Shown here in pieces: positions 1-26,974 of a DNA stretch of 64,000 nt. This stretch comes from Bacteroidota bacterium (lineage in GTDB: Bacteria > Bacteroidota > Ignavibacteria > OLB7). Location: positions 26,971-90,970 of the forward strand of contig JAFDZV010000036.1 in assembly GCA_018266795.1 (NCBI GenBank). The letters run 5' to 3'. The notes below the pieces were generated by a model that was not told where the DNA came from, made no database searches, and was given only the letters and a program-made list of their open reading frames with translations. The stretch's first letter is position 1, and each line of letters starts with the position of its first letter. The position numbers were made by a program, and so were the translations under genes.

Positions 1-3000
1 CGATCTCGATGGATGACGACACCACCCCGCTGCAATCGATGGCGGTGCTTCCCGGAGGCCCGTCGATCGACGCGCTCCGGCTCCCCAACCGCCTAACCTC
101 CGCCGTTCCAATCGTGCTGGAGGATGTATCGCTCACCTACAACGTTGGTGCACGCAGGGTTACGGAGTTCAACCTCGCGCTGCGCAGCGAGCAGCATTGG
201 GTGATCCTTCCGGCCTTTGCCGGCTGGCCGGCGGTGGAGTGGCTTGGGGTGAACGTGGTTGGATTCAATCTTGCCATCACCAACCCGTTCAGTTCGACCC
301 GCCGGGTGACAGCGAAGCTGTACGGTACACTGCGTCTGCTCGATCTCGCCGATATCGACTTCGAGATATTACGGACGCCCTCGCAGTGGCATCTCGCCGC
401 CAGCATGAATACCGAGTTCACTGTCCAGGACCTGATCGACAAGATCACCGATCCGGCCGGCCCGCGTGATTCCTGGGTGAGTGCGTTCGGCGCCATCAAG
501 ATCATTTCGCTGGAGGCGACATACGATACGCCCGGTGGCAACGGCCTGGATGGCGGGTTCACGTTCTCCGGCGAGGTTGACGTTGATTGGACCGTTGCGC
601 TCCCGAACGCGCCGGATGTCAGTGTTACCGTGAAGACCATCCGCGTCTCGGTGCAATCGCTCACGCTCCCCGGCGGCAACCGTTCGCGCAGCTTTGCTGT
701 TGTCGGCACGGTGAGGCTGTTCAATTCGCTCAATGTGCAGCTCTCGTTCGAGTACAACAACGGCCCGTATCGCATCGGCATCTCCACGCATCATCTCAGC
801 GGCCAGTACGACAGCGCCACCACGGCATTCTCGATCTCGCTCACGAACATCAAGCTCGGCGATCTGATCCGGAAGGTTGCGGATCTGATCGGCGTACGGG
901 ACGTGGGATTGGATGGCGGCTGGGCGTTCATCCAGGACATCAATCTCCCAACGACGACGCTCAAGATCTATCTGAAGGATCTCAACCTGAAATACGAGGC
1001 GCGGTTCGACTTCACCCCCAACCTCGATCTTGGATTCATCACCATTGTCTCCGTGGCTGTGCAGTACACCACGACAAATCAGTTCAGAGTGCTCGTGGAT
1101 GTGAAGCCGTTCGGATCGCAGAACACGACGTCGTTCACACTGCGCCCCGGAGAGCAGGGGAATTCCGGGGTGCCGGGAACGGCGGCGAAGGTCTTCGAGC
1201 TGCAGACGCTTGCGCTTGGCCAGCGGCTTACGTTCGCGGACCAGACTGCCGTGCGGAACGTCTCCGATGCGCTTGCCAGGATCACGTCGGCGTTCGACGT
1301 TCCCGCCGGTGATCTCCATCCACTCTGCGCGAACGACAAGCTGAAGTACGACGCGTCCGCCGGGATCATCTTCGGAACCGATCTCAGCCTGCTGGGCGCG
1401 CTTCACCTTCTCCTGGTGTTCAGCGATCGAAGCGTGGCCGGTGTTCGCCTGGAGGTGAACAGCACGCGTCTTCGCTTCCTCAACGGACTCGGATTCGAGA
1501 TCCTGTACAAGAAGGTGACCGAGAGCATCGGCGTCTACCAGATCGAGCTGCGATTGCCGGATGCCATCCGCCAGATCGACGTTGGGCAGGTATCGATCAC
1601 CATCCCGATCATCGCTCTCGATCTGTATACCAACGGCAACTTCCGTGTTGATCTGGGCTTCCCGAAGAACAACGACTTCTCCCGTTCGTTCACGCTGCAG
1701 GTGCTGCCGTTCCTCGGCTCCGGCGGTTTCTACTTCGCGATGCTGGAGGGAGCAACCGCATCGCGCCTGCCGGATGACTTCGATCGCAGCACCGGGGTGT
1801 TCAAGCCCGTGCTGGAGTTCGGCATCGGCCTCAGCCTGGGCGTTGGCAAGATCATTAACAAGGGAATATTCAACGCCGGCCTGAGCCTGACGTTCGAGGG
1901 AATTCTGGAGGGCGTCCTGGCGTTCTTCAATTCCAATACGAGCGCGCAGGAAAACGAAATGTACTACTGGATGCGCGGCACGTTCGCCGTGGTTGGCCGC
2001 ATCCAGGGAAGCGTGAGCTTCGCGGTTATCAACGCCAACGTTTCCATCGTGGCGTACGCGCGCATCGGCGTTACGCTGGAATCACGGAAGCCGATCGAAC
2101 TCTTCTTCGAGGCCGGTGTGGAGGTGAACCTCACCGTGCAGATCGGTATAGGCTGGTTGAGCACGGACATCAACTGCTCCTTCTCGATGACGATTCGCGA
2201 ATCGTTCCTCATCGACGCCAAGCCGCTGGGCAACGGTCCGTGGTCCACAGGGCGCGCGCACCTGCTGCCGGAGGCTCATGGCGGTGAGGCGCCTGCGGCG
2301 AGGGTTGCCGTTGCGCACGACATACCGCGGCCGGACTGGGCGCCCATTAAGTGGACGAATCCCGGAGAACTGGTGCTGGAATTCCGCCCGGACTTTACCG
2401 TTGCCGGTCCGGCGGCTGGGCCGGTTGCCACGCACTACGTGGGGATGCTGTTCCTGCGGAGCGTGAGCGATGCCGAGCGTACGGCCGACATGCTGGCCGG
2501 TACGGACTCGATGTCGGACTTCGAGCTCTTTGCCGACGCAATGCTGCTGTGGGGGCTGAACTCCGTGCGCGGCAACGGCGAGCTGTCCGGTGATGAAACG
2601 ATCAACGAGACGCTGCTCGGCCCCGCGGTGGGGCTGGAGGAGCTGGAGGATCTGTACGACGAGCTTACCGACGCCGCCGGCGGTGCCGCGCCGTTCACGT
2701 CGGACGAAGTGATCGAATTTCTCACGGGGTATTTCTCGGTTGTGATTCAGCCGCTTGCGATCAACAAGGCGCCGGGTCACCCTGACGAGAACAAGTCGCC
2801 CTATTACCGCCCTACCATGGCGGTGTTCCCGATGATTCCGGAACTGAGCATATCGGCGGACTGGGTTCTCGACACCTACGATGCCGTGTTCAAGGAAGTA
2901 TGCCGCGTGCCGCGCGATTACCGGAACGAGATCCGCGAACACTTTGCTCAGATGGCGGTGCAGTTCCAGAACACGCTCGAGACGGAGGCCAATCCGGACA

Positions 3001-6000
3001 TGGAGTTCCCGGCGGACGTCACGGAGACCTCGATTGCCGAGATGGTGTTCGAGGACTACTTCCTGATGATCATGCGTGTTGTGGTGAATGCGGCGATCGA
3101 TCTGCTGCGGGGGTACACCCAGCCCGGCGACAAGGTGACATCGATCGCCGCTCTGAAGACGAAGTACGGCGTTTCCACCACCGAGACGGTGAAGGCAAAC
3201 CGCCGGACGCCGCTGAAGGTGGGGGCCGTTCTGAATGTGAGCGGCCTGTATGCCACCGCACTGGATCTGGATACGATCGGCAGTCTGCTGGTGCGGGCCG
3301 GCGCCGATGTCACGTTCGAGATGGTGGATGAGCTGGCGAGTATCCACGCGGACCGGCCGGGATTCCTGAAGGGGGGCGCAACGTTCATCTACGACGGGGA
3401 GCCGATCACCATCGGCGCATCGGAAACGCTGACGCAGCTGGGAGCGCGGCTGGAGCCGTGGGCATCGCCGGGTGAGTTTGCATGGATCATATCGGATCTC
3501 GGTGTGCTGGCCGCAAGCACCTCACTCTACGTGCCGCTTGCGGCGCAGCACGCCATCACGGTTGCGGCAGACGATACACTGGCAAAGGTTGCGGCGCGCA
3601 TGCTCACGTTCGGCAGCACGGGCAACGCGGACTTCGTTGGCGAGATGGCAACGCTGAACGCCGATGTACCCGGTGTGCTGCGCGAGGGAACGATCGTGTT
3701 CGGATCGCAGGAGCCGTATCAGGTTGCCCCCGGAGATACGTTGCGCATCGTCGCGGCCGGCGCATTCTACGAGAGCGTGGCCGCGCTTGCCGCCGCCATC
3801 AAGGATGAAGCCGCCACCGTTGCGCCGGGCATACGTCTGGTTGTGCCGCCGCTTACGGCAGCCGCCGCCATGAACGGGCAGGACGCGCCCACACTTGTTT
3901 CGATGGCGATGGCGCGCGGGCTGGATCCGACGGAGCTCGGCCAGCTCAACGTTGCCGTGACGCCGCTGTTCGACTCCACGAGCACGGTGCAGGCCCCGAA
4001 CGTTGCAACGATCGCACTGAGCGAGCTTCGCACGGAGATGTACAAGCGCAAAGTGCTGGTGCAGGTGTCCGGCATTACGTCGTGCTTCGCGCAGCCCGGA
4101 CTCCGCCTTCCGATGCCCTCCGGATGGGCGCCCGGGCAGAACGATTTCTGGATGCTCCCAACCGATACGGAGCCGCTCTACTGGCTCACCGGCCAGCAGT
4201 TCGAGCTTCCGGTCTTCAACGATCCGGTAACGCCCGCGCCGTCGTTCGTTGTCTGGCTGGATGTGCCGCAGAACGCCGTGGGCTGGTACACGCTCCGTCC
4301 GCATCCCTTCGAGCTCACTCCGGATCCGAACAAGCCGGTAAGCGTGCCGTTCGATGCCGCGGCGATGACGTATCTGGACTCGCTTGCAACGGCTCCGTTT
4401 ACAACGGAGATCGACTGGATCAGGTCGCTGCCGAAATTCCGTCTGGAGGATTCGCGGCTGCCGCTGACCAAGCCTGTCGAGATACAGATGCCGGAACAGC
4501 TTTCGTTCGGCAATGGCGGCGGAACGGTGCCGAGCAATGTTGTTCCAACCCTCTGGTCGTTCAGCGAAGTGTTGCGCCGCAGCATCGGCACAACGTCGGG
4601 GTTGGCGTTTGCGCTCAACATCACGCGCGTGACCGCCGGCGCCGAGGAGATGGTTGACACCGTTGCCCGCTACACGTGGGCCACGGCGATCAAGGTGCGC
4701 GTTCGCATCGCCAGAAAGCCGGACGCCGGCATCGTTCCGATGACGTACGATATCGATGGTGCCGATCCGGAGGGGATGCTGAGCCTGGAACGCATTCTTG
4801 CCGACAACGGCGCGGATATTCGCAACGTGCACATTCTCTATCGCGGCGGCGGTGATTCCGGCACGGCCGCCTACAGAAGCGCCGGCACGGGCGGTGTGAG
4901 CGCGTTGATTCTGCGATCGAATCTCTCCACGCTCTCGAATCCCCAGGCGTCGAAGGGACTGGATCCGAAGAGCGTTCCATCGCCGGTCACGAACTACTTC
5001 AACAGCCCGGATTACCGGCGGGCAACGCTGCGCCTTCTCTGGCAGGGGAGCATTGTCCGCTCCGGCGGGTATCATCTCTACTATCGTGAGAACACGCCGG
5101 GCAGGGGATTGCCGGACGACGTGTTCGATGCCGATGGCTCGACCGAGATAACGGTGCTGGTTTCCTACAACGGCACAACGGTTCCCAGGTATGCCAATCG
5201 CGTGATTATCGGTGATGCGATCGATCCAACATGGGGCATTGTCGCAACGGTTCAGCCGAACAACGCTGCATATGCAGCCTCGCAGGTGAAGGTGCTGATG
5301 ATCCCGCCTGGACATGCCGGCTTCCAGCTGTATCGTCACCTGCGAACGATCGCATTCAACGGTCCTACCGCTACGGACACCGTCCACTCGCTCTACAGTC
5401 TGTTGAGTTATCGAGTGCTTGGCGTTCCGGGGCAGCAGGGATTTGCTGAGAGTATCGAGGCGCTGCCGAAGGGGCCGGGGCGACAGCTCATCCCGGATCC
5501 CACGTTTGCACCACCTCCGAACTCCGCACCGTACGAGGTGATGATTCCCGTGGCACCGCTGGCGCTCGACCCGATACCGGCGGGGATGCGCGCCACCACC
5601 AATGCACCCTATGTGGAGAGTCCGTATCGGAATATCGGTGCCACCATGATTGTCCGAACCGATTGGCGGGACGTGTTCGGGAACTCCACGATGAGTGGGT
5701 GGGCGCCCGTATCCGCACAGACCGGGTTTCCGCCGCCGCAGCCGCTCAAGGACGTGCCGGTGTTCATTGGATATACCGACCGGCTTGTAGGCCTTGGCCG
5801 ATGGCCGTCAACGCGAAGTGGATACAAGCTGGGCGGCATCGGGCCGGACGGGAAGCAACGGGCGATCATCCGCCTGGAACTGGACAACCGGCGCTACACC
5901 GCCGGGCCGGACGGGCCGATCAGCGCCACAACGAAGCGCAGCTATCTTCTTGCCGATCTCGACGTGTACCGGACGGCGTACTATCAGCTTATCTGTTCCG

Positions 6001-8741
6001 ACGTCTCCGTGAAGGCAACCGCGTCCTGGACCGCTCCGGATGCCGACATCTCCAAGGCTTCGCTGGTGGGCTACGTCGCGGATGTGATAGACTACCTTGC
6101 CGCGGGGGCCGTGGCCGTGCCCGCGCCATCGGTGGAACTGGACTTCTCGGCAGCATTGACCGTGACCGATCCCATCTTCCAGGTGTGGGTGAGCATGAAG
6201 ATCAGCCGTACCGCTCCGCTCGATCCGGACGTTGCCGATGTGACTGCGATCCGCGAGATCGTGGACGGCGTGGAGCCGTTGCTGGATCCGGCGCCGATCG
6301 GCCAGGCGGACTCGGAGGAAAAGATGCTGCGCCGTTTCGCCGCGGCGTTCGAAGGAGTGTTCACCACGCTCAAGCTCGCCACCGGGCTTTCGCGCATCGA
6401 TGACGGCCAGGGCTCATCGCGCACGCGGCTCTGGGCCGTCTCCATCGGCCAGCAGGGGACGATCTCCTGCACGATCGATGCCGCGCAGAACTTCTTCTTC
6501 GCTCCTGCGCCGCTGGCGCAGGCTCCGGCGAGCGGCACGGTTCAGGTGGACGCCTACGTAACAGGCAACGGGTTGGCCGGCAACCCGGAGTGGAAGCAGT
6601 ACGATGCGGTGGATGTCGACGACTGGGCGCGGCGCCTGATCGGCGCAATCGACACAGTGTTGCTGCCGCAGTATGCCATGCCCGGCTACCTGCTCGATCT
6701 GGGGCGCGCCGCAGCAGGCCCTGCGCCGGCCGACGGAATTGTTGATGGCTATATCAAGCGCATCATCGCGGCGAAGGAGAGTCTTGCAAACACGATTGCC
6801 GGCACGGTGACCTCGATTCATAACGAAGCGGGAGGTGACCGCGATGCCGCGGCCGATCTGCTGCTGCAGCGAATGCTGGTGCGCCTCTCTGCAGCATACG
6901 AGTTCGATGCGGTTGTGCAGCTTGGTGCCACGATTACATCATCGTACGCCGCGAACGGCGCGCCGAAGTTGTACGGCGAGCCGAGCGGTCGCGTGATGCG
7001 AGGCGATGTCGGCATCGATGACATCGATACCACCGCCGGTGCACAACCGGAGTTCACAACCTCAACAGCACGTATTCCCATGGCGAACGGGAATACATAT
7101 CTGACATATCTGTTCAGCTCGCAACAGGGTGAACCGGAGCGACTGATGGATACCAGAATGAAGTTCACGGCAACCGCCATCGAGCATCAGATCGACTCCA
7201 TTGTGGGGGTTGCGGGATATCAGGCATCGTCGTGGCTTACATTCATCAGGCCGATCGTGTTCCCGTCCGTTGGGCAGAACGCACAGCCGGAGTTCGCCGT
7301 CAAGGTGCCGATCCTCAACCGTGCGCTCCCGGCGGTTCCGACGCTTCTGGAGCAGGACATGGCAACGAACGTGGCTTCGAATCCGGGCGTTGACCTTACG
7401 CTTGCGCAGACGCGCGGCTGGACGTACGACTATGTCTACGATCGCGTGTCGCTCGGCACGTACGATGTGATCTTCACGGCACCGCGGTTCAACGTGCATC
7501 CGAACGAGATGCCGAAGCCGGGCGGGATCGACGAGCCCGATTTGTTCGCGACGCTGGCGGAGTTCGACTACATCTGGGATCTGCTGCAGAAGGATCTCTT
7601 CGAGGCGCTGCCGAATGTTCGGCAGTCCGGTCCCGCCACCGATGATACCCGTGCCGAGGTTGCGCTGCGGGTGTTCACCGAGCTCGTGGAGCGGGCGGCG
7701 CTTGCCTGGATGGCATGGGGCTGCTACTACGGTGTGTATGTACCGACGTACGAAACCAACGAGCGCTATCGCTATGTGATCAGCGAAGACGAGGAGGAGG
7801 TGACGATCGAAGGCGTAACGGGAATCTGTCACGTGATCACCATCCGCCTGTGCGACGGCACGCCCGACGTGGAGCTGCCGTGGGTGCTCATCGACGGATT
7901 CACGCCGGTCGTCCTCTCCAGCACGCCGACCGCCTGCAGGTTCTGCTACGGCTACATCGATCCGGTAACGCAGCAGCCGACGCTTCTGCAGACTGCCGAC
8001 GCGCTCACGATCCGCAACCGGCGTGTGATGTTCGAGAACCTCAACATCCTTGCACAGCAGAACGCGTGGGGCGGCGTCTATGCAGCTCGCAATATGAATC
8101 TGTTCCAGGGTGATGCCGCCTGCAACGCCGGCGCGCCGCGGCACACGAATCCGGCGTTCGTCTATCGCACGCCGATGGTTCGCTTCGGAAGCCTGCTGAC
8201 GCCGCTGATCGAGTACGACCGGCCGATACTGATCCGCGATCTGGGGCCCAACCCCGGGGTGCGCACGATCGGTGAGCACGTATCGGCCATGTTCACGGCC
8301 TTCTTCGAGGGGCTCTGGCAACAGAACGATCCCGCGATCTGCCGGAGGATCATGGCAACCTGCCGGTACGACTATCAACTGGACAGCGCCTCCGTTGCCG
8401 CCGATCCGGTGGTGGTGACGCTGCCGATTCACATGGCACCGCCGTTCGAGTTCGTGATACCGTACGATGAGGGAGAACTGCCCGATGACACGTTCACCTA
8501 TGCGGCCACGGACTCCATCACCACCTGGTTCAACAAGCGGTATCCGGAGCGGGGGCACGGAGTGCTGGTGTTCGATATCTCGGTGTACTCCAGTCTGAGC
8601 GCGAGCGACAAGCTGCCGGTCTATCGGATCAGCAATCTCCAGCTTTCGCTGAACGACGTGAGCGACCTGCAGGAGCCGCCTGTGGATCCGCCGGACGGAA
8701 TCACGATCTGCCCGGCATGGGTCGGCAACCCGGGCGCATGA
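1..8741 (+). CDS. Giant protein, paralog A (5'-partial, at least 2,910 aa in window); LysM-like repeat array; family not recognised
   Basis: The open frame runs from the window edge (in frame from nt 3, first ATG at 9) to a stop at 8741. It is collinear with the 3,371-aa ORF at 15654-25769. The shared motif FEILYKKVTESIGVYQ is aa 496 here and aa 857 in paralog B, so about 360 N-terminal residues probably lie upstream of the window. No signal peptide can be judged because the N-terminus is missing. Confidence 0.85.
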   Translation, partial: ISMDDDTTPLQSMAVLPGGPSIDALRLPNRLTSAVPIVLEDVSLTYNVGARRVTEFNLALRSEQHWVILPAFAGWPAVEWLGVNVVGFNLAITNPFSSTRRVTAKLYGTLRLLDLADIDFEILRTPSQWHLAASMNTEFTVQDLIDKITDPAGPRDSWVSAFGAIKIISLEATYDTPGGNGLDGGFTFSGEVDVDWTVALPNAPDVSVTVKTIRVSVQSLTLPGGNRSRSFAVVGTVRLFNSLNVQLSFEYNNGPYRIGISTHHLSGQYDSATTAFSISLTNIKLGDLIRKVADLIGVRDVGLDGGWAFIQDINLPTTTLKIYLKDLNLKYEARFDFTPNLDLGFITIVSVAVQYTTTNQFRVLVDVKPFGSQNTTSFTLRPGEQGNSGVPGTAAKVFELQTLALGQRLTFADQTAVRNVSDALARITSAFDVPAGDLHPLCANDKLKYDASAGIIFGTDLSLLGALHLLLVFSDRSVAGVRLEVNSTRLRFLNGLGFEILYKKVTESIGVYQIELRLPDAIRQIDVGQVSITIPIIALDLYTNGNFRVDLGFPKNNDFSRSFTLQVLPFLGSGGFYFAMLEGATASRLPDDFDRSTGVFKPVLEFGIGLSLGVGKIINKGIFNAGLSLTFEGILEGVLAFFNSNTSAQENEMYYWMRGTFAVVGRIQGSVSFAVINANVSIVAYARIGVTLESRKPIELFFEAGVEVNLTVQIGIGWLSTDINCSFSMTIRESFLIDAKPLGNGPWSTGRAHLLPEAHGGEAPAARVAVAHDIPRPDWAPIKWTNPGELVLEFRPDFTVAGPAAGPVATHYVGMLFLRSVSDAERTADMLAGTDSMSDFELFADAMLLWGLNSVRGNGELSGDETINETLLGPAVGLEELEDLYDELTDAAGGAAPFTSDEVIEFLTGYFSVVIQPLAINKAPGHPDENKSPYYRPTMAVFPMIPELSISADWVLDTYDAVFKEVCRVPRDYRNEIREHFAQMAVQFQNTLETEANPDMEFPADVTETSIAEMVFEDYFLMIMRVVVNAAIDLLRGYTQPGDKVTSIAALKTKYGVSTTETVKANRRTPLKVGAVLNVSGLYATALDLDTIGSLLVRAGADVTFEMVDELASIHADRPGFLKGGATFIYDGEPITIGASETLTQLGARLEPWASPGEFAWIISDLGVLAASTSLYVPLAAQHAITVAADDTLAKVAARMLTFGSTGNADFVGEMATLNADVPGVLREGTIVFGSQEPYQVAPGDTLRIVAAGAFYESVAALAAAIKDEAATVAPGIRLVVPPLTAAAAMNGQDAPTLVSMAMARGLDPTELGQLNVAVTPLFDSTSTVQAPNVATIALSELRTEMYKRKVLVQVSGITSCFAQPGLRLPMPSGWAPGQNDFWMLPTDTEPLYWLTGQQFELPVFNDPVTPAPSFVVWLDVPQNAVGWYTLRPHPFELTPDPNKPVSVPFDAAAMTYLDSLATAPFTTEIDWIRSLPKFRLEDSRLPLTKPVEIQMPEQLSFGNGGGTVPSNVVPTLWSFSEVLRRSIGTTSGLAFALNITRVTAGAEEMVDTVARYTWATAIKVRVRIARKPDAGIVPMTYDIDGADPEGMLSLERILADNGADIRNVHILYRGGGDSGTAAYRSAGTGGVSALILRSNLSTLSNPQASKGLDPKSVPSPVTNYFNSPDYRRATLRLLWQGSIVRSGGYHLYYRENTPGRGLPDDVFDADGSTEITVLVSYNGTTVPRYANRVIIGDAIDPTWGIVATVQPNNAAYAASQVKVLMIPPGHAGFQLYRHLRTIAFNGPTATDTVHSLYSLLSYRVLGVPGQQGFAESIEALPKGPGRQLIPDPTFAPPPNSAPYEVMIPVAPLALDPIPAGMRATTNAPYVESPYRNIGATMIVRTDWRDVFGNSTMSGWAPVSAQTGFPPPQPLKDVPVFIGYTDRLVGLGRWPSTRSGYKLGGIGPDGKQRAIIRLELDNRRYTAGPDGPISATTKRSYLLADLDVYRTAYYQLICSDVSVKATASWTAPDADISKASLVGYVADVIDYLAAGAVAVPAPSVELDFSAALTVTDPIFQVWVSMKISRTAPLDPDVADVTAIREIVDGVEPLLDPAPIGQADSEEKMLRRFAAAFEGVFTTLKLATGLSRIDDGQGSSRTRLWAVSIGQQGTISCTIDAAQNFFFAPAPLAQAPASGTVQVDAYVTGNGLAGNPEWKQYDAVDVDDWARRLIGAIDTVLLPQYAMPGYLLDLGRAAAGPAPADGIVDGYIKRIIAAKESLANTIAGTVTSIHNEAGGDRDAAADLLLQRMLVRLSAAYEFDAVVQLGATITSSYAANGAPKLYGEPSGRVMRGDVGIDDIDTTAGAQPEFTTSTARIPMANGNTYLTYLFSSQQGEPERLMDTRMKFTATAIEHQIDSIVGVAGYQASSWLTFIRPIVFPSVGQNAQPEFAVKVPILNRALPAVPTLLEQDMATNVASNPGVDLTLAQTRGWTYDYVYDRVSLGTYDVIFTAPRFNVHPNEMPKPGGIDEPDLFATLAEFDYIWDLLQKDLFEALPNVRQSGPATDDTRAEVALRVFTELVERAALAWMAWGCYYGVYVPTYETNERYRYVISEDEEEVTIEGVTGICHVITIRLCDGTPDVELPWVLIDGFTPVVLSSTPTACRFCYGYIDPVTQQPTLLQTADALTIRNRRVMFENLNILAQQNAWGGVYAARNMNLFQGDAACNAGAPRHTNPAFVYRTPMVRFGSLLTPLIEYDRPILIRDLGPNPGVRTIGEHVSAMFTAFFEGLWQQNDPAICRRIMATCRYDYQLDSASVAADPVVVTLPIHMAPPFEFVIPYDEGELPDDTFTYAATDSITTWFNKRYPERGHGVLVFDISVYSSLSASDKLPVYRISNLQLSLNDVSDLQEPPVDPPDGITICPAWVGNPGA
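3114..4005 (+). other. Array of about 5 degenerate LysM-like repeats inside giant paralog A
   Basis: The translated segments resemble the LysM pattern (Y-x-V-x-x-GDTL-x-x-IA ... hydrophobic-P). Examples: YTQPGDKVTSIAALKTKYGVSTTETVKANRRTPLKVGAVLNV, HAITVAADDTLAKVAARML..., YQVAPGDTLRIVAAGAFYESVAALAAAIKDEAATVAPGIRLVVPP. Assigned by eye only; no profile search was run. Confidence 0.45.
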
Positions 8742-9118
8742 TCGGGGAATGCATGCCTGCGACGACCGGTGGGGACCTTGTCTCCGTCCGGTCGTTGCCT
8801 CGCCGAACCGATGATGGGCGCGGCGTTGCGATCGCGGCATTGCCGTGCGCCGCTGCGGCAACACCGCCGCCGTTCGGCGTGCGTTGCTCGCAGTACCTGC
8901 AGGTACTTGCGAGAAGCTCAACCTCGACTGCGTCAGGGCATTCCTCCGCGATGGCTGCCCGCGGTCTCGGCAGGCGAGCGGAGCGAAGCCGCGGCCACAT
9001 TCCCCGCGCGCGCATCGTTCCGCCGGGTGAACGATGATGCAGGCCGTGCGGGTTGCCCGCGGGCATCCGCTCCGCTGCAGCTGATAACGAACACCTCCAC
9101 GATAACAGGCCAAGGCTC

Positions 9119-10429
<1,311 letters not shown>

Positions 10430-10684
10430 GGGAGGGCGGGCGCCGCCGCCCGGGGCTGCTGCAGGGGAGAATGCAGACGATTGCATCGCGCGCCGCGACC
10501 ACCGTGCCGCGGCGCGCGACCAGAGGCGGGGCCGGCGCTGCAACCGTTGTGGTTGCCGCCGGCAGCGCATCGCTACCGTGAAGAACGCACCATCACCAAC
10601 AGCTTCCATCAACGACCGGCCATCTCCGGCTTCCCCGCGAGATCGCTGCGCTCGGCGGTGAAGGCTTCAAGCGCCGAGACCAGC

Positions 10685-14260: not shown

Positions 14261-14371
14261 GGTATGCGTGCGATCGTACACCTGGCCAGGCCCGAAATGC
14301 CGGGGACACGGATCCCGCCTGAAGAGAGAACGAACCATCACAACAAACAGTCACGACTCAGGAGAGAAGCC

Positions 14372-15637: not shown

Positions 15638-15653
15638 ACAGAGGAAGACTGCC

Positions 15654-18600: not shown

Positions 18601-21600
18601 CGGCGCAGCTCAGCATCACATTCGAGGGAATTCTGGAAGGGGTGATCGGCTTCTTCAACCCGACGAGCGGGAGCGGAACCGAGATCTACTACTGGCTTCA
18701 GGGCACGCTCGGCGTGGTTGGCCGGATCCAGGGAAGCGTGAGCTTCGCCGTCATTTCCGCAAGCGTCTCGCTGGTTGTGTACGCGCGTATCGGGGCCACA
18801 TTCGAATCATACCAACCACTCGTGCTCTTCTTCGAGGCCGGTGTGGATGTGAACCTTACGGTGCGCATCGGCGTTGGCTGGCTGAGCACCGATGTCAGTT
18901 GCTCCTTCTCCACCAGCATCCGCGAGTCGTTCACGATCCCGGTGCGCGGCAATGGAACGGCGCCGTGGGTTGGCGGCGGCCAGCATGCGTTGGGCCACGG
19001 CGCCGGGCCGCACGGTATGATCGGATCGAGTGCGGTGGCGCCGAAGGAAATGGGGGTTCTCCGCTGGAGAACGATCGACATGGCCGGCACGGGCGACGAA
19101 GTTCTTCTGGAGTTCCGTCCGATGTATACCGTGGCGGAAGGGCCGAACGGCCAGAAGTCCAACTACGTGGCAATGCTGTTTCTGCGCAGTGCATCGCAAT
19201 CGGAACGCGAGAACGACCATCGGACTGTCAACGAGATTCAGGCAACGGACTTTGAGGCGCTTGCAACCGGCATGTTGGTGTGGGCGATCAATGCATCGGT
19301 GAATGCCAACAACCAGACTGCCGTCAATGCGGGCAACATCGAGACCGAACTCCTTAACAAGGACGTCCGGATTGATCACCTGCAGGAAGTGTTCGATTCT
19401 CTGGCACGCCGGGCAGGAGCGGCTGCGAGTTTCGAGACGCAGCAACTGCTGGATTTCCTCCACCTGTATTTCACGATGGTGATCGTCCCATTGCAGCAGA
19501 ACCGGCATTCACCGAATGGTGGCAGCTCCGATGACCGGCCCACGCTGGCAGTGTTCCCAATGCCGCCGGACCTGGAACTGAAGGCGTTCTACGATGACGC
19601 GACCGTGGCCGACATCGACTTCGCCTCCTACAACATGGTACCGGACAGCTATTCCGGCGAGATCGCCAACCACTTCAAGGAAATCGCCATGCAGTTCCAG
19701 ACAGGGCTGGAAGCGAGCGTTGACGCGAATGAAATGCAGGCTGCGCCGGAGTATACGGGCGACGAAGAGTCCATGGCATCCTATGTCTTCGACGACTATT
19801 TCATGCTCCTTGCGCGTGGGGTGGTACATGCGGCCATGGATCTGCTGAAGAATTATTCGATTAAATCTGCCGGGGAGACTCTTGCCGCCCTGGCGACCAC
19901 CTATGGGGTTTCCCCGGGTGAGGTGGGCGTTGCAAATGCGGATCTGGCGATCACCGCACCGGCCACACTGCAGCTTGGCGGTGTGGCGGTAACCACGACG
20001 GCTACCGATACGCTCGCGGCATTGGCCTCGGACAGGGGGTTCCCGAACGACAATGGTTTCCTGGAGAGCCTCGGTCGCCTGAATGCGCTCACACCCGGAC
20101 TCGTGGCAACGGACACGGCGATCACGATCGGCGACGACTCAATCGATGTTGCAGAAAACGAGACGTTGTACTCCATGGCGACGAGGCTCCATGCTTCACC
20201 GGGTGCGGTTGCCGTCACGATTGCATCGCGGCAGGTGCTCAATGCCGATACGAGGCTGCTTCTTCCAACGGTTCCAACCACGTATCTCACCGTTGGGAGC
20301 GAGCCCAATCTGCGCTGGATCGCGTCCAACTACGTTGCAACGCCGGACTTCCAGTTCGAGACGGACTTCGCGCTCGCGAACGCGTTCGTTCCGGGGATCT
20401 TCGTTCCGGGAACCATCTTCACGATGGCGACCGGAGATGCGTACCAATCCATCGCGTCCGACTCGCTTGCAACAATTGCGGCGGCGGTGGGCTTCACCGT
20501 GGAATCGGTGGCGGGAGCCAGCAACGAGCTTTCCGGCATCATCGCTCCCGGAGTTCGCCTTACCATCCCTCCGGTGTCGGTTGCGCTGGAGGGTGCGCCA
20601 ACGTTGCGCCAGGTGCAGACAACCTATGGAGCCGGCATCGCGGCAGTGGCTGCGGCCAACGCCGCAACCCTTGTGCTGGGTGCGGCGGGCGGTTGCATTG
20701 AGCTGCCGAATGTGAAGAAGATCAAGATCGGAACGCTGAGGAAGGAAATGCTGCAGCGCGATCTGTTGATCGATCTTGGCGGCACGGTCTCGCGATTCAT
20801 GGTGCCGGGCCTGCGGCTGCCGCTCCCGACGCAGCAGCAGAATCCCGAGCCCGGCCTGTGGCCGAACTGCGAACCGGATGGATTGTATCGCCTTACCGGC
20901 CAGCAATTCGAGTTGGACAACCCGCTCGGCGGGCAGAACGGACCCGATCTGGATGTTATGCTGGTTGGCGGAGCCAACGCAGGCTGGTATTCGATGCGCG
21001 GGGACGCGGAGAACTACGAGAACCCCGAGAACGACGAGGTGTATGAAAATCCTGTGCGTGTCACGCTCGAGTGGGCTGACCTCGACAAGCTCGATCAGCT
21101 TGCCGCAGAGCAATTGCTGGTTGACGCGTCGCCCTACCGGAAGATCCCGATGTCGCAGACGCAGTTGAAGCGCTTCCCGCTTGGGCGTCCCGTGCAGATT
21201 CAGATGTCCGGTGCGTTTGCCTATGCCGTTGGAACGGCTCCCAACGGCGTGTTGCCGACCATCCTCAACTTCTCCGAGGGAATGCGCCGCGTGCTGGCGG
21301 TGGCCAGGAATCCGGAGCAGCGTTTCGATCTCGCGCTGGAGCGGCCGGACGGATCCGCTGCGGCGCTGAACGTCTACTCCTGGGCTACGGCAATCACCGT
21401 GAAGGTGCGTCGCGTTCGCCTGCCCGATGGTTCCATTGCTGCAATGACCTACGAGCTGGACGGTGCCGACGCCGAGGGGACGCTGACGCTGGAGAAGATC
21501 GTTGCCAGGGGAGGAACGTCCGGCTTCGGGTTCATTCAGGATATACATCTTCTCTTTGCCGGCCAGGGAGTTGGAGCGTTGCAGACCGACGGGCCGAATG

Positions 21601-24600
21601 CAATCAGTGCCTTCATCCTGCAAACCAATCTCTCCACGCTCACCAACCCGCAGGGGTCGAAGAGCATGGTGGCGGCGAAGGACGTACCGGCTGCGGTCGC
21701 AAATGATTTCAAGGACAACCGTGCCGAGATTCTGCGAGTACTGTGGGAGGGAAGTATCGTTCGCTCCGGCGGATACTATCTCTACTATCGGTGCGGTGGT
21801 GCATCGCGAGGGCTGCCGGACAGCGCGTTCAAGGATGACGGTACGGCGGACATCACGCTGTTGATCACCTATGGCTACGGGGCCGGCAATTATGCCTCCA
21901 GCGGGCTGCCGTCGTTCGTGAACCGGGTGGTAGTGGGGGCGGATGTTACCGTGGCTTCCGTGTTCGCAGTCTCGCACGAGCAGTCGATATCGGTAGCGGT
22001 GAACGGCACCACGACGCTCAGCCAGCTGATGGCCTCGTATCACACAAACCTTGCGGATCTGGCCGTGGACCTTGGCGGACAGGGGCTGAGCGTGGAGTCG
22101 ATTCCCGTTCCCGGTGCAGTGTACCAGGTGGCGCACGGCGGCGAGACGCTGGGCGCGGTTGCCAACCGATTCCATCTTGGCATCGATGCCATCAAAAGCG
22201 CGAACACGGATCTCGATGCGGGCCTCACCGCCGACAGCGAGTTGACCGAGTACCTGACCCTCGTGATCCCGCCGTTCACGCATCCGGTAGCTGCCGGGCA
22301 GAACCTTGCAGGCATTGCCGGCACATACAATGTGCCATTGACCGATCTCGTTGCTCCGCTTGCCGGCTCTGCAATCTTCGCTGCCGGACCGAATGTGAAC
22401 ATCCGCAGTCGCCTGGTAACGAAGTCGCCCACGGTGCCGCCGGGACACACCGGATTCCAGCTGTTCCGCGTGCCTCAGGAGACTCCGACAGTGCATGATG
22501 AGCCCACAGCCGCACAACAGTTGGAATCGCTCTACAGCCTGCTTGCATACTGGCTGGTGCAGAACCAGTGGTGCGATGGAAGCATGGAGGGACTGCCGCG
22601 CGGACCGGGGGAGGAACTGGCGGAGTTCACGGATCTTCCGGACGTGGAGGATCGGTGGAAGTACGAACAGGTACTGCCTGCGTACCGGTTTGTTCACAGC
22701 GCACTCCCGGCCGCCAACCCATATCGAGGGGTGGGTACGCTCGTGGAGATCGGCGTGGATTGGCGCGACGTGTTCGGCAATCTCCTGAACTACGTCTTCG
22801 AGGTTGATGGATGTTGGGGATCGAACGTTCTGCCGATCCGCCTGGGCTACACCGACGAAGTAATCGGAATCGGGCGTTGGCCGTCTGTGCGGTCATCCTA
22901 CAGCATGGGCTTCGATGCGAACTCGAATCCGACGAACGACATCGTACTGGAGTTCGATGTTGCGCGCTACCTGGTTACCCCGGAGGGTGAGCAGGCAAGT
23001 CTGGGGGATGTGTACAATATTGCCGGCGCCGACTACGAAGCATACACGCGCATCGCAAATCAGCTTGCCTGTGCCGATGTCACAGCCTGGGGAAGCACCA
23101 CGCTGGGCGGCCCGTCGCAGCCGCTCAGTATTGCCGCAATCCGTGCCTGGGTGGGAAGCATCGTAAGCTTCCTGGATCAGCTGTTCGCGGTGCTTATCGA
23201 CCCGGATGCGCCGCAGCCGCAGATCCCGGACGATCTCACGCTTCCGATCCCTGCCTCGCTTACAAACAACGAGGCGATCTTCCCGTTGATCGTTCGTTTC
23301 GGCATCGAGCGTACCGGGCGTATCGACGATGCATTCCTCGACATGCCCGCCGTGCGCGAGGCTACCGAGGACATCGAACCCGCCGGGCCGATCAAGGACT
23401 TCGCCGCGAACTTCGAGTGCGTCTATGGGGGGGCGAAGCTGGCCGCGGGCCTCTCGCGTCTGGAGGATACGGAGACCGATTCACGCAATCGGCTCTGGGT
23501 GGTGAAGCTGGGGCAGCTCAACGGCAATAATCGCGACCAGGGCCCATCGAATCCGAACAAACGGTTCCAGTATGCCGTCGACGATCAGCAGCAGGTGTTC
23601 TTCGCACCGATTCCGCTTGCTACGTCACCCATCGGATCGGAAGATCTGAACGTCTACAACTACGTTTCCGGACAGGGGCTGGCCGATGCAGTCACCAGGA
23701 AAACCTACAAGGGGGTTGATCTCGATGCCTGGGCCCGGACGTTCCTGAATGCGGTGGACACGATTCTGCTTCCTCAGTATGCAACTCCGGCACATCTGCT
23801 CGATCTTGGAAGCGCTGCTCCGGCGGGCTCGCGCGCGCTCGAGAAGATTATCGCTGCGAAGCGAATGATTGCCGGCGCCATCACGGGAATGGTGCAGGAG
23901 ATTGGAGACACAGGACGGGGAAACCTGGGCGAGGCCAGCGAGTTCTTCAGTCAGCGACTGCTGGTTCGATTGTCGGCAGCGTATGAAACCGATGCGATCG
24001 TTCAGCTGGGAGTAAACGTGGACTCGCCGTATGCCGATGCGGATACCACGTACGTACCGAAGCTGTATGGGCAGACAGTGGGACGGCGGCCGGGAACGGA
24101 GGAGTCGAAGCCGGAGTTCACGCTCTCCACGGCACGTGTTCCACTGGCACGCGAGAGTCAGTACCTGACATTCCTTTTCAGTGCGGAGACGGCGCTGCCC
24201 GAACAGATGTTCGAGGTGGATGTAGAATTCAACGTCAGCGCATTGGAATACCAGATTGCCGACGTGCCGGGCATTACCGATTATCGCGCGTCATCGTGGC
24301 TCACATTCATCATTCCACCCGACTCGCCAACCGTGCGGGCTGCTGTTCCGGTACCGATCCGGAAGTTCCCGCCCACGCCGACGTTGATCGAGCAGGAATT
24401 GATCACCACGGTTGACGCCACCGATGATGAGGAGGAATACAATGCGCTTACGCTTGCCGAGACGCGTGAATGGCAGTATGCATATACATACGAGCGGGTG
24501 CAGGGGACGCACGATGTAATCTTCACCTCCCCTCGATTCAATGTGGCCAACAGCGAACTGCCTCACGGCATCGGTGCGGAGGATCCCGATCTGTTCCAGG

Positions 24601-25769
24601 CGCTGGCGATGTTCGATCACGCCTGGGATGCCATCCAGCAGGATCTGTTCGATCCGTTGGTCAAGATCAGGCAGGGCGTTGCCGGTGCCGACGACGGCAA
24701 GGCCGATGCCGCTCTCACAGCGTTTGCCGCAATTGCATCCAAGGTTGCATGCGCATGGGGACGCTGGTTGTGCGATCGCGATTTCTACCGGCCGTCGTAC
24801 GGGACGGAAGATCCATACCTGTACGTGGTAAGCGAGGATGATCGCGACATCCTAGTCGAGGCGCAGGTGGTGCGGCGGTTCACGATAGCCGTCAGAGTCT
24901 GCCGCGGCCAGGCGGACGTTCCTCTACCGCGTATAGATGTCGATGGTTGGGAAACCCACCCGGTGGACAACGTATTGCCGGGATGGCGGATATTCTGGTA
25001 TTCAGCAGTAGGAGAGAACGGAACGGAGATCCTGGACAAGGATACTGCTGCGGAGGACCGCCAGCGAACGGTGGTATTCGAAACACTGGATATCCTGAAC
25101 AAGCAGAATGCATGGGGAGGGGTGTACACAACCCGGAACGAGAACATCTTCAACGATGCCGCCTGTAATCCGACTGCTTCCATTCATACGAATCGGGAGT
25201 TCATCTATCGTACTCCGATGGTTCGCTTCGGAAATCTGCTGACCCCACTCATCGAATATGACGGGACGATCGATGTCGGGAGTCTGAGTCCCGCGGAGCC
25301 GAGCCCGAAGGGAATCGGGAGCCACATCGGCACGTTGTTCACGAAGTTCTTCGAAGGGATTCAGAATCCGGCGCCGAACGAGACCCGAAGCATTCGCGTG
25401 GATTGCAGGTATGAGTATCGTCTGGGGAATCCCTATGGGATCGTGAGTCCGATGATCGTTACGCTGCCGATTGCTATGTCGCCGCCGTTCGATTTCCGGA
25501 TACATGCGGACGAGGACGCGACATGCCCGCAGCAGGCTGCCACTTTCACCTGTGCGCTTGCCGATGCGATCACCGCCTGGTACTACGCGCGGTTGCCCGA
25601 GCGGGATCAGGGGCGGTTCATTTTCGACATCGCAGTCTATTCAAGCCTGGGGAATACAGGCAAGCTGCCGATCTACCACGTGAAGTCCTTGCGGTTGAAT
25701 CTGAGCGACGTGAACGATCTGACCGAGGATGATTGCGACGACGACGGTGGCGACGGCACGGGAGGATGA
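15654..25769 (+). CDS. Giant protein, paralog B (3,371 aa); two LysM-like repeat arrays; family not recognised
   Basis: ATG at 15654 (MSLQTFYNSLGGD...) is preceded by GAGGAAG and lies 16 nt after the MBL stop. The ORF is uninterrupted to 25769. It is collinear with paralog A, with islands of high identity such as FEILYKKVTESIGVYQ..., NAWGGVY..RN.N.F...AACN....HTN..F.YRTPMVRFG.LLTPLIEYD, and VFDI.VYSSL....KLP.Y. No signal peptide and no T9SS-type C-terminal domain; the protein ends DDCDDDGGDGTGG. Confidence 0.85.
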   Translation: MSLQTFYNSLGGDTPPNPIVFELDEDTVDPILMLLTLLEVDRLEVDIVGEGEHDPPFGMVYTADDQPMTIRGSAEMYGVATTVLLVFVQDAETDAIQGTLTAALDITSIQALSDSGIAVIANMADIAAMPEAGVVLEVLGNLSLTTSTADRTFVVQSGIKDGTTRVFQSPAVSFTGLNVRVDRVIGDPASEDGPGAPVTTLSVKGAFTVCGQALDVTVDIPVGGVGSTMWRFAFTSPTGFGLDSLVDLLNAFGVGGQFAALPDRIRLLSAFRFMGFEVIADPFPSIASIEVLFAITGDWNVVDTVTLHNITCSLLVQNPFNGPSALLRASGVFTVGGIDLGTTLLIPIGGGNWLVRCTTDSDSINLLTMSQLPGRFDLSSLQAPIGTQQQLDVVLNDLTVVFNPIARTIGAISIAVRYAATWNALVYNGETVLSVTNPQFVIAIDSPLSNNRRVTASISGFVAFYDLINASFEMTRSGGRWAFAAETTKPIRLQAIFDKFFPTYPEWLDAIKGFSITQIVFNYTTSGGSQPGVFNLSARIEANWDYALGGQTGSIQLTSISASVGSQPDPAQPAQRIWTFAVAGTVRLYDTFNLTGSFQYRTGNGPGSGAEIAVEFDGVRGVYNSTNKRIDVSLGNRTVGDLVNTLNRLVNGPATPDYQFESPWDLVAGISLQGLVFSFYFDGNSQKRCGITYRFPTPVDLGFMKIVSVSVIVTTTKKIRFEADVIPFTATTPSPFGWNLDDANVPKPPGRSARILDLKYLGIGQRLELMSANATRSVDDGIAAMKTAFAIPSATSHPLTGMQAGLRYNPQMNWLVGADFQLFGALAIGFIFNDSNIAGVRVGVDGDRFRYLGGLKFEILYKKVTESIGVYQMEIRVPDSIRQIELGQVSITLPIIAFELYTNGNFKVDFGFPKDNDFSRSFMIQVFPFLGAGGFYFALLEGATSPRLPANYNPNTGVFRPVLSFGIGLSLGVGKSINRGIFSAQLSITFEGILEGVIGFFNPTSGSGTEIYYWLQGTLGVVGRIQGSVSFAVISASVSLVVYARIGATFESYQPLVLFFEAGVDVNLTVRIGVGWLSTDVSCSFSTSIRESFTIPVRGNGTAPWVGGGQHALGHGAGPHGMIGSSAVAPKEMGVLRWRTIDMAGTGDEVLLEFRPMYTVAEGPNGQKSNYVAMLFLRSASQSERENDHRTVNEIQATDFEALATGMLVWAINASVNANNQTAVNAGNIETELLNKDVRIDHLQEVFDSLARRAGAAASFETQQLLDFLHLYFTMVIVPLQQNRHSPNGGSSDDRPTLAVFPMPPDLELKAFYDDATVADIDFASYNMVPDSYSGEIANHFKEIAMQFQTGLEASVDANEMQAAPEYTGDEESMASYVFDDYFMLLARGVVHAAMDLLKNYSIKSAGETLAALATTYGVSPGEVGVANADLAITAPATLQLGGVAVTTTATDTLAALASDRGFPNDNGFLESLGRLNALTPGLVATDTAITIGDDSIDVAENETLYSMATRLHASPGAVAVTIASRQVLNADTRLLLPTVPTTYLTVGSEPNLRWIASNYVATPDFQFETDFALANAFVPGIFVPGTIFTMATGDAYQSIASDSLATIAAAVGFTVESVAGASNELSGIIAPGVRLTIPPVSVALEGAPTLRQVQTTYGAGIAAVAAANAATLVLGAAGGCIELPNVKKIKIGTLRKEMLQRDLLIDLGGTVSRFMVPGLRLPLPTQQQNPEPGLWPNCEPDGLYRLTGQQFELDNPLGGQNGPDLDVMLVGGANAGWYSMRGDAENYENPENDEVYENPVRVTLEWADLDKLDQLAAEQLLVDASPYRKIPMSQTQLKRFPLGRPVQIQMSGAFAYAVGTAPNGVLPTILNFSEGMRRVLAVARNPEQRFDLALERPDGSAAALNVYSWATAITVKVRRVRLPDGSIAAMTYELDGADAEGTLTLEKIVARGGTSGFGFIQDIHLLFAGQGVGALQTDGPNAISAFILQTNLSTLTNPQGSKSMVAAKDVPAAVANDFKDNRAEILRVLWEGSIVRSGGYYLYYRCGGASRGLPDSAFKDDGTADITLLITYGYGAGNYASSGLPSFVNRVVVGADVTVASVFAVSHEQSISVAVNGTTTLSQLMASYHTNLADLAVDLGGQGLSVESIPVPGAVYQVAHGGETLGAVANRFHLGIDAIKSANTDLDAGLTADSELTEYLTLVIPPFTHPVAAGQNLAGIAGTYNVPLTDLVAPLAGSAIFAAGPNVNIRSRLVTKSPTVPPGHTGFQLFRVPQETPTVHDEPTAAQQLESLYSLLAYWLVQNQWCDGSMEGLPRGPGEELAEFTDLPDVEDRWKYEQVLPAYRFVHSALPAANPYRGVGTLVEIGVDWRDVFGNLLNYVFEVDGCWGSNVLPIRLGYTDEVIGIGRWPSVRSSYSMGFDANSNPTNDIVLEFDVARYLVTPEGEQASLGDVYNIAGADYEAYTRIANQLACADVTAWGSTTLGGPSQPLSIAAIRAWVGSIVSFLDQLFAVLIDPDAPQPQIPDDLTLPIPASLTNNEAIFPLIVRFGIERTGRIDDAFLDMPAVREATEDIEPAGPIKDFAANFECVYGGAKLAAGLSRLEDTETDSRNRLWVVKLGQLNGNNRDQGPSNPNKRFQYAVDDQQQVFFAPIPLATSPIGSEDLNVYNYVSGQGLADAVTRKTYKGVDLDAWARTFLNAVDTILLPQYATPAHLLDLGSAAPAGSRALEKIIAAKRMIAGAITGMVQEIGDTGRGNLGEASEFFSQRLLVRLSAAYETDAIVQLGVNVDSPYADADTTYVPKLYGQTVGRRPGTEESKPEFTLSTARVPLARESQYLTFLFSAETALPEQMFEVDVEFNVSALEYQIADVPGITDYRASSWLTFIIPPDSPTVRAAVPVPIRKFPPTPTLIEQELITTVDATDDEEEYNALTLAETREWQYAYTYERVQGTHDVIFTSPRFNVANSELPHGIGAEDPDLFQALAMFDHAWDAIQQDLFDPLVKIRQGVAGADDGKADAALTAFAAIASKVACAWGRWLCDRDFYRPSYGTEDPYLYVVSEDDRDILVEAQVVRRFTIAVRVCRGQADVPLPRIDVDGWETHPVDNVLPGWRIFWYSAVGENGTEILDKDTAAEDRQRTVVFETLDILNKQNAWGGVYTTRNENIFNDAACNPTASIHTNREFIYRTPMVRFGNLLTPLIEYDGTIDVGSLSPAEPSPKGIGSHIGTLFTKFFEGIQNPAPNETRSIRVDCRYEYRLGNPYGIVSPMIVTLPIAMSPPFDFRIHADEDATCPQQAATFTCALADAITAWYYARLPERDQGRFIFDIAVYSSLGNTGKLPIYHVKSLRLNLSDVNDLTEDDCDDDGGDGTGG
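19851..20718 (+). other. LysM-like repeat array 1 of paralog B (positional equivalent of 3114-4005)
   Basis: Segments include NYSIKSAGETLAALATTYGVSPGEVGVANADLAI, TTTATDTLAALASDRGF..., DVAENETLYSMATRLHASPGAVAVTIASRQVLNADTRLLLP, TMATGDAYQSIASDSLATIAAAVGFTVESVAGASNELSGIIAPGVRLTIPP and LEGAPTLRQVQTTYGAGIAAVAAANAA. Assigned by eye. Confidence 0.45.
21969..22430 (+). other. Paralog-B-specific insertion carrying about 3 more LysM-like repeats
   Basis: B reads ...VVVGADVTVASVFA[VSHEQSI...154 aa...RLVTKSP]TVPPGHTGFQLFR. A reads ...VIIGDAIDPTWGIVATVQPNNAAYAASQVKVLMIPPGHAGFQLYR. The insert contains YQVAHGGETLGAVANRFHLGIDAIKSANTDL and HPVAAGQNLAGIAGTYNVPLTDLVAPLAG. Confidence 0.5.
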
Positions 25770-25827
25770 TACCGGCCTGGCACGTGGGGCCGATACGGCT
25801 TCATGGCGACAGATGCAATGAACGACG

Positions 25828-25865
25828 GCGTCTCGTTACTTCGGGTGACGAGACGCTTCGTTTTT
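25828..25865 (+). terminator. Rho-independent terminator closing the giant-gene block
   Basis: A perfect 9-bp stem GCGTCTCGT / ACGAGACGC (25828-25836 and 25848-25856) around an 11-nt loop, followed by TTCGTTTTT. It lies 59 nt after the paralog B stop. Confidence 0.7.
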
Positions 25866-25885
25866 AGTGCGCACGCTCGTTGCTC

Positions 25886-26938: not shown

Positions 26939-26974
26939 GGCAGCGCATCAATAGTGTGAATCGAGGAGGGAGTT

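Follow-up and report, generated by a model that had tools for sequence, protein, structure and literature searches.

A recurring bacterial cassette of a LysM-bearing giant protein, its p1191 partner and an exchangeable phosphodiesterase/DNase slot, present as two tandem modules in an Ignavibacteria contig: a putative antagonistic complex

The first 26 kb of the stretch of DNA analysed here, 64,000 nucleotides (nt) in full and called the window below (positions 26,971 to 90,970 of contig JAFDZV010000036.1, assembly GCA_018266795.1, a Bacteroidota bacterium of the Ignavibacteria), carry two tandem copies of a gene cassette that recurs widely among bacteria. The cassette has the order (small proteins)-p1191-phosphodiesterase/DNase slot-giant-(collagen)-(GT2-TPR glycosyltransferase). 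Its invariant core consists of p1191, a protein of about 1,200 amino acids (aa), followed by a giant of 3,000-4,400 aa, the most conserved part of which is an island of about 265 aa. Here, we describe the organisation, distribution and predicted domains of this cassette, and we propose tentatively, with a probability of roughly 35%, that it encodes a glycan-binding, cell-wall-targeting antagonistic complex that would be assembled in the cytoplasm and carry a DNase, the function being putative.

The cassette was delimited by tblastn and clustering of open reading frames (ORFs) across 82 loci, with flanks of 10 kb on each side of the island match, which hence reach a few kb past the cassette ends. 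In all 62 loci whose upstream flank spans 5.2 kb or more, a p1191 homolog lies directly 5' of the giant and on the same strand. Since this arrangement is repeated in dozens of unrelated genomes, it is not due to chance. An initial annotation of the window had taken five consecutive genes, namely two giants, a collagen-like protein, p1191 and a metallo-beta-lactamase (MBL), as one functional unit; the gene set and the synteny are borne out, but the unit is instead p1191-slot-giant with an optional collagen gene. Scored against island homologs, p1191 is found at 62 of 62 loci, an MBL at 13 and a collagen-like gene at 13 of 82. The collagen-like protein and the MBL are lineage-specific accessories and not fixed parts of the system, the MBL being outnumbered by EEP-family proteins (13 loci vs 31). 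On the 5' side of p1191, a protein of about 430 aa is encoded in 28 of 57 loci, and otherwise one to three paralogous proteins of about 230-280 aa. Relatives of these two small-protein families could not be detected, PDB profile searches included, and hhalign found no homology between the ~230-aa and the ~430-aa family. The giant can also be divided between two adjacent genes, of 1,114 and 2,614 aa on the Mycetohabitans rhizoxinica plasmid pBRH02 (L083, 4769-15968) and of 1,528 and 1,588 aa on the Paenibacillus plasmid pART37 (L089, 16030-25388). The two split points are unlike, one preceding the island and the other following it, which suggests that the giant is a chain of separable modules.

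The features of the two modules in the window, and of one further gene discussed below, are as follows.

9-8741, + strand: giant A, an ORF with 2,910 aa visible, 5'-truncated at the window edge; scaffold protein of module A
1464-2258, + strand: conserved island, aa 486-750 of giant A; beta-hairpin domain, rich in Gly and of relatively high hydrophobicity
3405-3803, + strand: degenerate LysM-like array of giant A, 2-3 units by motif scan and iterated LysM hidden Markov model (HMM)
9119-10429, + strand: collagen-like protein, ORF of 436 aa; accessory of module A, 3' of giant A
10685-14260, + strand: p1191 (JST22_16115), ORF of 1,191 aa; obligate partner protein of module B
14372-15637, + strand: MBL phosphodiesterase, ORF of 421 aa with a signal peptide at 14372-14434; the variable 'nuclease slot'
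15654-25769, + strand: giant B, ORF of 3,371 aa; scaffold protein of module B
18192-18986, + strand: conserved island, aa 848-1112 of giant B; 8-10 long antiparallel beta-strands in the model
19869-20519, + strand: first LysM-like array region of giant B (iterated LysM HMM, aa 1407-1433 and 1598-1623)
22134-22355, + strand: second LysM array of giant B, two units (HMM, aa 2162-2188 and 2213-2235)
25827-25867, + strand: intrinsic terminator; 14-bp stem (7 GC pairs), 3-nt loop, T-rich tail
28808-32428, - strand: GT2-TPR-methyltransferase-GT2-GT4/GT1 glycosyltransferase (Pfam), 1,206 aa, beyond the part covered by the initial annotation

ORF calls and the stem-loop at the end of giant B (25827-25857) reproduce the five co-directional + strand genes and the strong terminator that were first described, and codon-position GC supports all five ORFs as genuine genes. 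The gaps between them, from giant A to giant B, are 377, 255, 111 and 16 nt. The giants are paralogs, as had been noticed, with 39% identity over at least 1,779 aa, rising to 70% identity and 86% positives over 262 aa of the island. The frame of giant A stays open up to the window edge and begins, in the alignment, at residue 361 of giant B; about 360 aa of giant A thus lie outside the window. The giants do not bracket a single five-gene system, as the initial annotation had it; the block is made up of two tandem modules. Module B consists of p1191, the MBL and giant B. Giant A has its own partner, P0015 (JST22_16095), a 1,161-aa paralog of p1191 (44% identity) that is encoded upstream of the window. 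Locus-tag spacing points to the order P0015-one further gene-giant A-collagen-p1191, and module A would comprise P0015 and another gene outside the window, probably its slot gene, followed by giant A and the collagen-like protein.

The slot between p1191 and the giant is occupied by genes of about 400 aa and its content varies. Among 69 loci it holds an EEP-family protein in 31 and a ComEC/Pce-type MBL in 13 (the window included), while it is empty in 5 and has other or unknown content in 20. The MBL of the window has a weak Pfam Lactamase_B match, the metal motif SHLDEDH and a partial match to the NCBIfam ComEC/Rec2 model TIGR00361 (E = 9e-12), the score of which falls far short of the equivalog cut-off since the protein lacks the membrane domains of ComEC. 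Among PDB profiles it matches ComEC (9vc6, E = 9e-5) and also the phosphorylcholine esterase Pce/CbpE. The ComEC-type assignment made at the outset thus holds, and by its fold and H-x-[HD]-x-D-H motif the protein is a predicted ComEC-type MBL nuclease. Its N-terminal hydrophobic sequence and AHA/AP cleavage motif also make it the only protein of the block with a classical signal peptide, again as first noted. Sec signal peptides are found on the MBLs of the window and 7 related loci and are confined to Bacteroidota-type loci. The EEP proteins of other loci match PF03372 (E = 1.7e-8) and the DNase I profile (E about 8e-9), and their catalytic residues N, E, H, D, N, D and H are invariant; with this catalytic set intact, they are classed from sequence as DNase I-like EEP nucleases. 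No signal peptide was found in the slot EEPs, which indicates that they are cytoplasmic. Variants of the slot were seen at five loci (L011, L059, L064, L068, and L073): some have two tandem paralogous MBL genes, and those of Pedobacter and Flavobacterium have, instead of MBLs, two proteins of about 140-155 aa (clusters 18 and 19) without a family assignment. In Paenibacillus, a metallophosphatase gene lies directly downstream and a thermonuclease-family gene about 4 kb upstream of the p1191-like gene.

A slot filled by nucleases or phosphodiesterases also bears on a different explanation, anti-phage or anti-plasmid defence, which would have the giant and p1191 as sensors of infection or envelope damage and the DNase as an effector that degrades invading or host DNA. 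The MBL is weakly similar to MBLs of defence systems (LmuA at 6e-10 in PADLOC; Avs1a and 6A-MBL in NCBIfam), the EEPs without signal peptides would act in the cytoplasm, a conflict-system protein with pYEATS and YLATT domains is encoded next to the cassette of the window, and the distribution of the cassette is patchy, with plasmid carriage that suggests horizontal transfer. However, PADLOC has no match for the giant or p1191, and an NTPase, STAND or other sensor domain was not found in the searches. Moreover, the MBLs of the window and the 7 related loci carry Sec signal peptides, glycan-binding or fibre modules such as LysM arrays and collagen-like fibres belong outside the cytoplasm, and the pYEATS neighbour is kept only in the closest relative, L003. 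We therefore regard defence as distinctly unlikely.

The giants themselves offer one recognisable module. Pfam gives nothing for either giant beyond a single LysM match in giant B (PF01476, E = 1.3e-6, aa 2164-2189), and LysM is the sole domain recognised in 12 giants scanned and in the PDB profile search, where LytE, Ecp6 and others were matched. Eleven of the 12 family members match LysM, with a best E of 1e-41. An HMM iterated on the family finds 0-23 units per giant in 3-4 discrete arrays, with 2 units for giant A and 4 for giant B, which upholds the LysM-like arrays reported earlier. LysM binds GlcNAc glycans, that is, peptidoglycan or chitin. Family representatives align to giant B over its full length at 26-29% identity, with conserved columns through the C-terminus, and in these comparisons the LysM arrays appear to act as variable insertions at 3-4 sites within a conserved scaffold. 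Membership of the LysM family describes a module and not the function of the giant family. The giants and p1191 lack an N-terminal hydrophobic segment or signal peptide, and the core proteins are without signal peptides in monoderm and diderm hosts alike. For p1191, the PDB profile search gave no match and hhalign detected no homology to the giant.

The island includes motifs that are invariant in the family, such as FEILYKKV and YTNGNF. Across 86 giants its grand average of hydropathy (GRAVY) is +0.40 vs +0.05 for the rest of the protein (+0.29 vs +0.04 for the whole protein in giant A), and it is Gly-richer and equally charged. An AlphaFold model of residues 561-1420 of giant B, made from a 31-sequence alignment, has a mean predicted local distance difference test (pLDDT) score of 72, with 80-93 in the island. 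In this model, an N-terminal part with repeated units of about five strands and a helix is followed by the island, with 8-10 antiparallel strands of 18-23 residues each, and then by a helical region. The modelled island resembles the walls of beta-barrels including BamA, TamA and LptD, at 4-10% identity. Such features could belong to a bridge or channel that spans the envelope, of the AsmA/TamB/BLTP or Omp85 type. Lipids or polymers would then be transported along a groove or barrel built from the beta-rich N-terminal repeats and the island, and the strand-helix repeats, the barrel-wall matches and the relative hydrophobicity of the island all agree with it. Against this stand the Pfam families AsmA, TamB, DUF490 and Omp85, which are unmatched at E <=1 for giant B and <=0.01 for giant A, the absence of a signal peptide or N-terminal anchor, and the presence of the system in monoderms that have no outer membrane (Streptomyces, Paenibacillus, Lysinibacillus, Clostridia). 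Together with an accessory, plasmid-borne occurrence in about 0.2% of species, this makes a bridge or channel highly improbable.

The system is neither rare nor confined to its source genome. A word-indexed protein search had returned 13 fragmentary matches to the island and 8 to p1191, and the true size of the family became apparent only from an exhaustive HMMER search and a genome scan. With the island profile, HMMER retrieved 1,370 cluster representatives (E < 1e-30 for 1,087), mostly of 3,000-4,500 aa and with the island at about residues 500-1,400. The scan covered about 185,000 species, each represented by a single genome, and gave 391 loci from at least 13 phyla. Carriers belong to Bacteroidota (Pedobacter, Mucilaginibacter, Flavobacterium, Saprospiraceae), Ignavibacteria, Chlorobiales, Acidobacteriota, Chloroflexota, Gemmatimonadota, Planctomycetota, Eremiobacterota, Actinomycetota (Streptomyces), Bacillota, Myxococcota (Sorangium), Cyanobacteriota and Pseudomonadota (Janthinobacterium, Duganella). 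The nearest genome is a Candidatus Kapaibacterium metagenome-assembled genome (MAG), with the same gene order and an island that is 92% identical. Nine plasmids carry the system, including pBRH02 of M. rhizoxinica and p1 of Burkholderia sp. FERM BP-3421, on which the cassette genes form compact islands annotated as 'hypothetical' and 'LysM domain-containing'. Patchy distribution and plasmid carriage suggest that the cassette is horizontally mobile, and they fit an accessory function in conflict or antagonism. One carrier is labelled as an archaeon: a complete p1191 and giant pair is present in a Methanothrix sp. MAG (L074, contig bin152_1, 160,770 bp), which reflects either a genuine inter-domain transfer or a binning error.

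The same searches bear on a phage origin, i.e., a degenerate prophage, tailocin or extracellular contractile injection system (eCIS) structural module, for example one of giant tail fibre or baseplate proteins. The collagen repeats do match tail-fibre PHROGs, two giant homologs weakly match Phage_tail_X, which is a LysM-like domain, and components without signal peptides suggest release by lysis. However, neither the giant nor p1191 has a PHROG match, tblastn with the island against 50,697 phage genomes returned nothing, and the 4 matching contigs out of 2.9 million in IMG/VR all match at contig ends. A fold search of BFVD gave TM-scores of at most 0.13, and sheath, tube, portal and capsid genes are absent from the annotated flanks. 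These PHROGs, phage-genome, IMG/VR and BFVD searches largely rule out a phage module, which we find scarcely credible.

Optional genes at the 3' side of the cassette point towards fibres and glycosylation. The collagen-like protein of the window has long G-X-Y tracts (PF01391 repeats, E = 2e-31) and a C-terminal domain of about 135 aa without a family assignment; neither a signal peptide nor an LPXTG motif was found in it. The collagen-like ORFs of the 13 loci usually lie directly 3' of the giant, as in L019, L020, L026, L028 and L045. They share the N-terminal motif NWSY[LM]ILNGI, of which the window protein has an 11-residue form, and their C-terminal domains vary (e.g., Kelch in L020). Homologs of the GT2-TPR glycosyltransferase adjoin giants in L003, L008 (53% identity), L019, L032, L065 and L072; GT2-TPR-GT4 genes accompany giants in Ignavibacteria, Mucilaginibacter, Flavobacteriales and Bacteroidota MAGs. 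In L052, an Actinomycetes MAG, the giant has a GT2 domain fused to its C-terminus. The glycosyltransferase of the window is thus probably linked to the system and perhaps glycosylates the collagen-like protein or the giant.

This combination could also belong to an envelope, coat or fibril assembly of the producer itself, such as a spore or cyst coat, an exosporium or a sheath, with a layer of LysM giants, glycosylated collagen filaments and a phosphodiesterase that remodels teichoic-acid-like polymers or extracellular DNA. The BclA nap on the Bacillus exosporium is assembled within the mother cell, and the absence of signal peptides is shared with such mother-cell-assembled coat proteins. The LysM units give a weak match to the SafA/ExsA spore-coat domain, the collagen-like protein and the GT2-TPR-GT4 glycosyltransferase repeatedly adjoin giants, the MBL resembles the teichoic-acid phosphorylcholine esterase Pce as well as ComEC, and there are several paralogous small subunits. 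On the other hand, endospores are not known from many of the host lineages, such as Bacteroidota, Acidobacteriota and Pseudomonadota, and the collagen and glycosyltransferase genes accompany a minority of loci (13/82). The commonest slot enzyme is a DNase I-like nuclease and not a wall-polymer esterase, and carriage on plasmids and in 391 of about 185,000 species genomes is unlike a core role in the envelope. On balance a producer coat seems unlikely.

The antagonistic complex that we favour would work as follows. The signal-less giant, p1191 and the small subunits would assemble in the cytoplasm into a large complex, with collagen-like fibres that may carry glycosylation. The complex would be set free by a route such as lysis, as for tailocins, eCIS and Tc toxins, and the LysM arrays and fibre tips would attach it to the wall of a competitor, prey or fungal cell. 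There, the beta-hairpin island may engage or breach the membrane, and the associated DNase would degrade target or released DNA. Several observations weigh against this proposal. No export or release route was identified, and neither a lysis cassette nor secretion genes were seen in the flanks of 10 kb on each side of the island match. An antibacterial nuclease toxin would normally need an immunity gene, and none is evident beside the DNase I-like enzymes, which have no signal peptide. In Bacteroidota, Sec exports the MBL on its own and none of the other components, which fits awkwardly with one pre-assembled particle. The structural picture is also partial: the model of giant B covers 860 of its 3,371 residues, and that of p1191 was built from 8 sequences and reached a pLDDT of 66.5, so that a known fold may have been overlooked. 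The probability left over by this proposal and its rivals belongs to explanations that are not listed here.

Some neighbours in the window deserve mention in their own right. Just past the terminator, 25886-26938 (- strand) encodes a prokaryotic YEATS domain and a YLATT module with three transmembrane segments (PF20305, PF20303), which are conflict-system domains; this gene adjoins the cassette elsewhere only in L003 (71% identity), so any link to the cassette is tentative. At 43616-46455 (- strand), a MoxR-type AAA ATPase (PF20030, bpMoxR) is encoded beside a VWA-domain protein, and these two form the core of the 'MoxR-vWA-beta-propeller ternary' conflict systems. Another MBL-fold protein, unrelated to the first and fused to two rhodanese domains (32918-34465, + strand), has no apparent link to the cassette; its Lactamase_B and Rhodanese pair suggests a sulfur enzyme of the persulfide-dioxygenase type. 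The remaining window is ordinary chromosome, with genes for SusC/SusD, a class-I peptide chain release factor (PCRF and RF-1 domains), MnmA, UvrA and others.

Placed beside known systems, the core proteins appear to be new at the level of recognisable families, and any mechanism is hypothetical. The initial annotation could assign no motif to the giants or p1191 (no YD/RHS repeats, cadherin/Ig-type modules, autotransporter domain or the like), and the Pfam, PHROGs and PADLOC searches agree, LysM aside. Literature searches, protein accessions included, found no description of the system. Because synteny is strong in related and unrelated genomes and no profile places the giants or p1191 in a characterised family, its suggestion of an undescribed system stands. 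Several candidate identities were rejected. The giants have no matches to the Tc toxin families VRP1, TcA_TcB_BD, SpvB, TcdB_mid or RHS/YD in Pfam; for RHS/YD polymorphic toxins, the C-terminus of the giant is moreover conserved across the family and not polymorphic. An outer-membrane beta-barrel (porin, Omp85/BamA, autotransporter) is contradicted by the lack of a Pfam OMP match and of a signal peptide, by the monoderm hosts and by the 4-10% identity; unlike in transmembrane beta-barrels, the island sits inside a protein of 3,371 aa, at residues 850-1110. Membership of AsmA/TamB or bridge-like lipid transfer proteins lacks both a profile match and an N-terminal hydrophobic segment. The collagen-like protein scores 94-142 bits with the NCBIfam Lcl and SclB models, the cut-offs of which are 325-500, and has no signal peptide or LPXTG, so it is not a Scl/Lcl adhesin. 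No known anti-phage defence system was recognised, PADLOC being silent for giant, p1191 and collagen and giving weak matches only for the MBL (LmuA, RTasMBL and Avs1a MBL modules).

Likenesses to known devices are those of architecture. Like Tc toxins, which are released by lysis, the cassette encodes very large signal-less proteins in a compact accessory cassette, with a variable enzymatic component and a conserved scaffold that bears variable receptor-binding insertions, the LysM arrays in the case of the giants. Unlike in Tc toxins, the effector is a separate gene and not the C-terminal hypervariable region of a cocoon protein, and there is no evidence of an alpha-helical translocation channel. 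Tailocins and eCIS (Afp, PVC) are antagonistic particles of several signal-less subunits assembled in the cytoplasm, as is proposed for the cassette products, and they share with the cassette LysM-like domains and collagen-like or fibre proteins for target binding and a patchy, horizontally transferred distribution; the cassette has no sheath, tube, baseplate, spike or AAA ATPase genes and its core proteins are unrelated. As in CdtB-type toxins, a DNase I-like EEP is encoded with putative carbohydrate-binding delivery components. However, the EEPs of the cassette have no signal peptide, the slot of the window holds a ComEC-type MBL, and the partners, of 1,200 and 4,000 aa, are not ricin-like lectins such as CdtA and CdtC. 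The window's collagen-like protein has the long G-X-Y tracts of Scl1/2, Lcl and BclA and is likewise accompanied by a GT2-TPR-GT4 glycosyltransferase, but it is an optional accessory with its own NWSY[LM]ILNGI motif and without LPXTG, a signal peptide or an exosporium-targeting motif.

The logic of the proposed complex would thus be analogous to that of Tc toxins, tailocins and CdtB-type toxins, to which it is unrelated in sequence and in the modelled segments. It is possible but doubtful that the cassette forms a previously unrecognised class of weapon or translocation machine, with an evolutionary origin separate from phage tails, from Tc toxins and from the numbered secretion systems. In such a machine, a LysM scaffold with a new membrane-engaging beta-hairpin domain would dock on peptidoglycan or chitin walls and deliver or deploy a DNase, and horizontal transfer would have carried it through at least 13 phyla of monoderms and diderms. 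If it does prove to be a functional machine, it would be a new and phylogenetically broad addition to the few large bacterial antagonism or translocation devices, and it would give a role to more than 1,000 clusters of 'hypothetical' or 'LysM domain-containing' proteins of 3,000-4,400 aa. In the parts that were modelled, no relation of the core proteins to solved structures was detected, and new folds may be among them. Culturable carriers exist in Pedobacter (P. nototheniae), Mucilaginibacter (M. flavidus RT5R15), Janthinobacterium (J. violaceinigrum FT13W), Burkholderia (sp. FERM BP-3421), Mycetohabitans (M. rhizoxinica HKI 454, with pBRH02), Sorangium and Streptomyces. Should its role turn out to be one in structure or defence, the cassette would still be a well-defined and testable system, given that p1191 and the giant are strictly paired and that the DNase slot is interchangeable.

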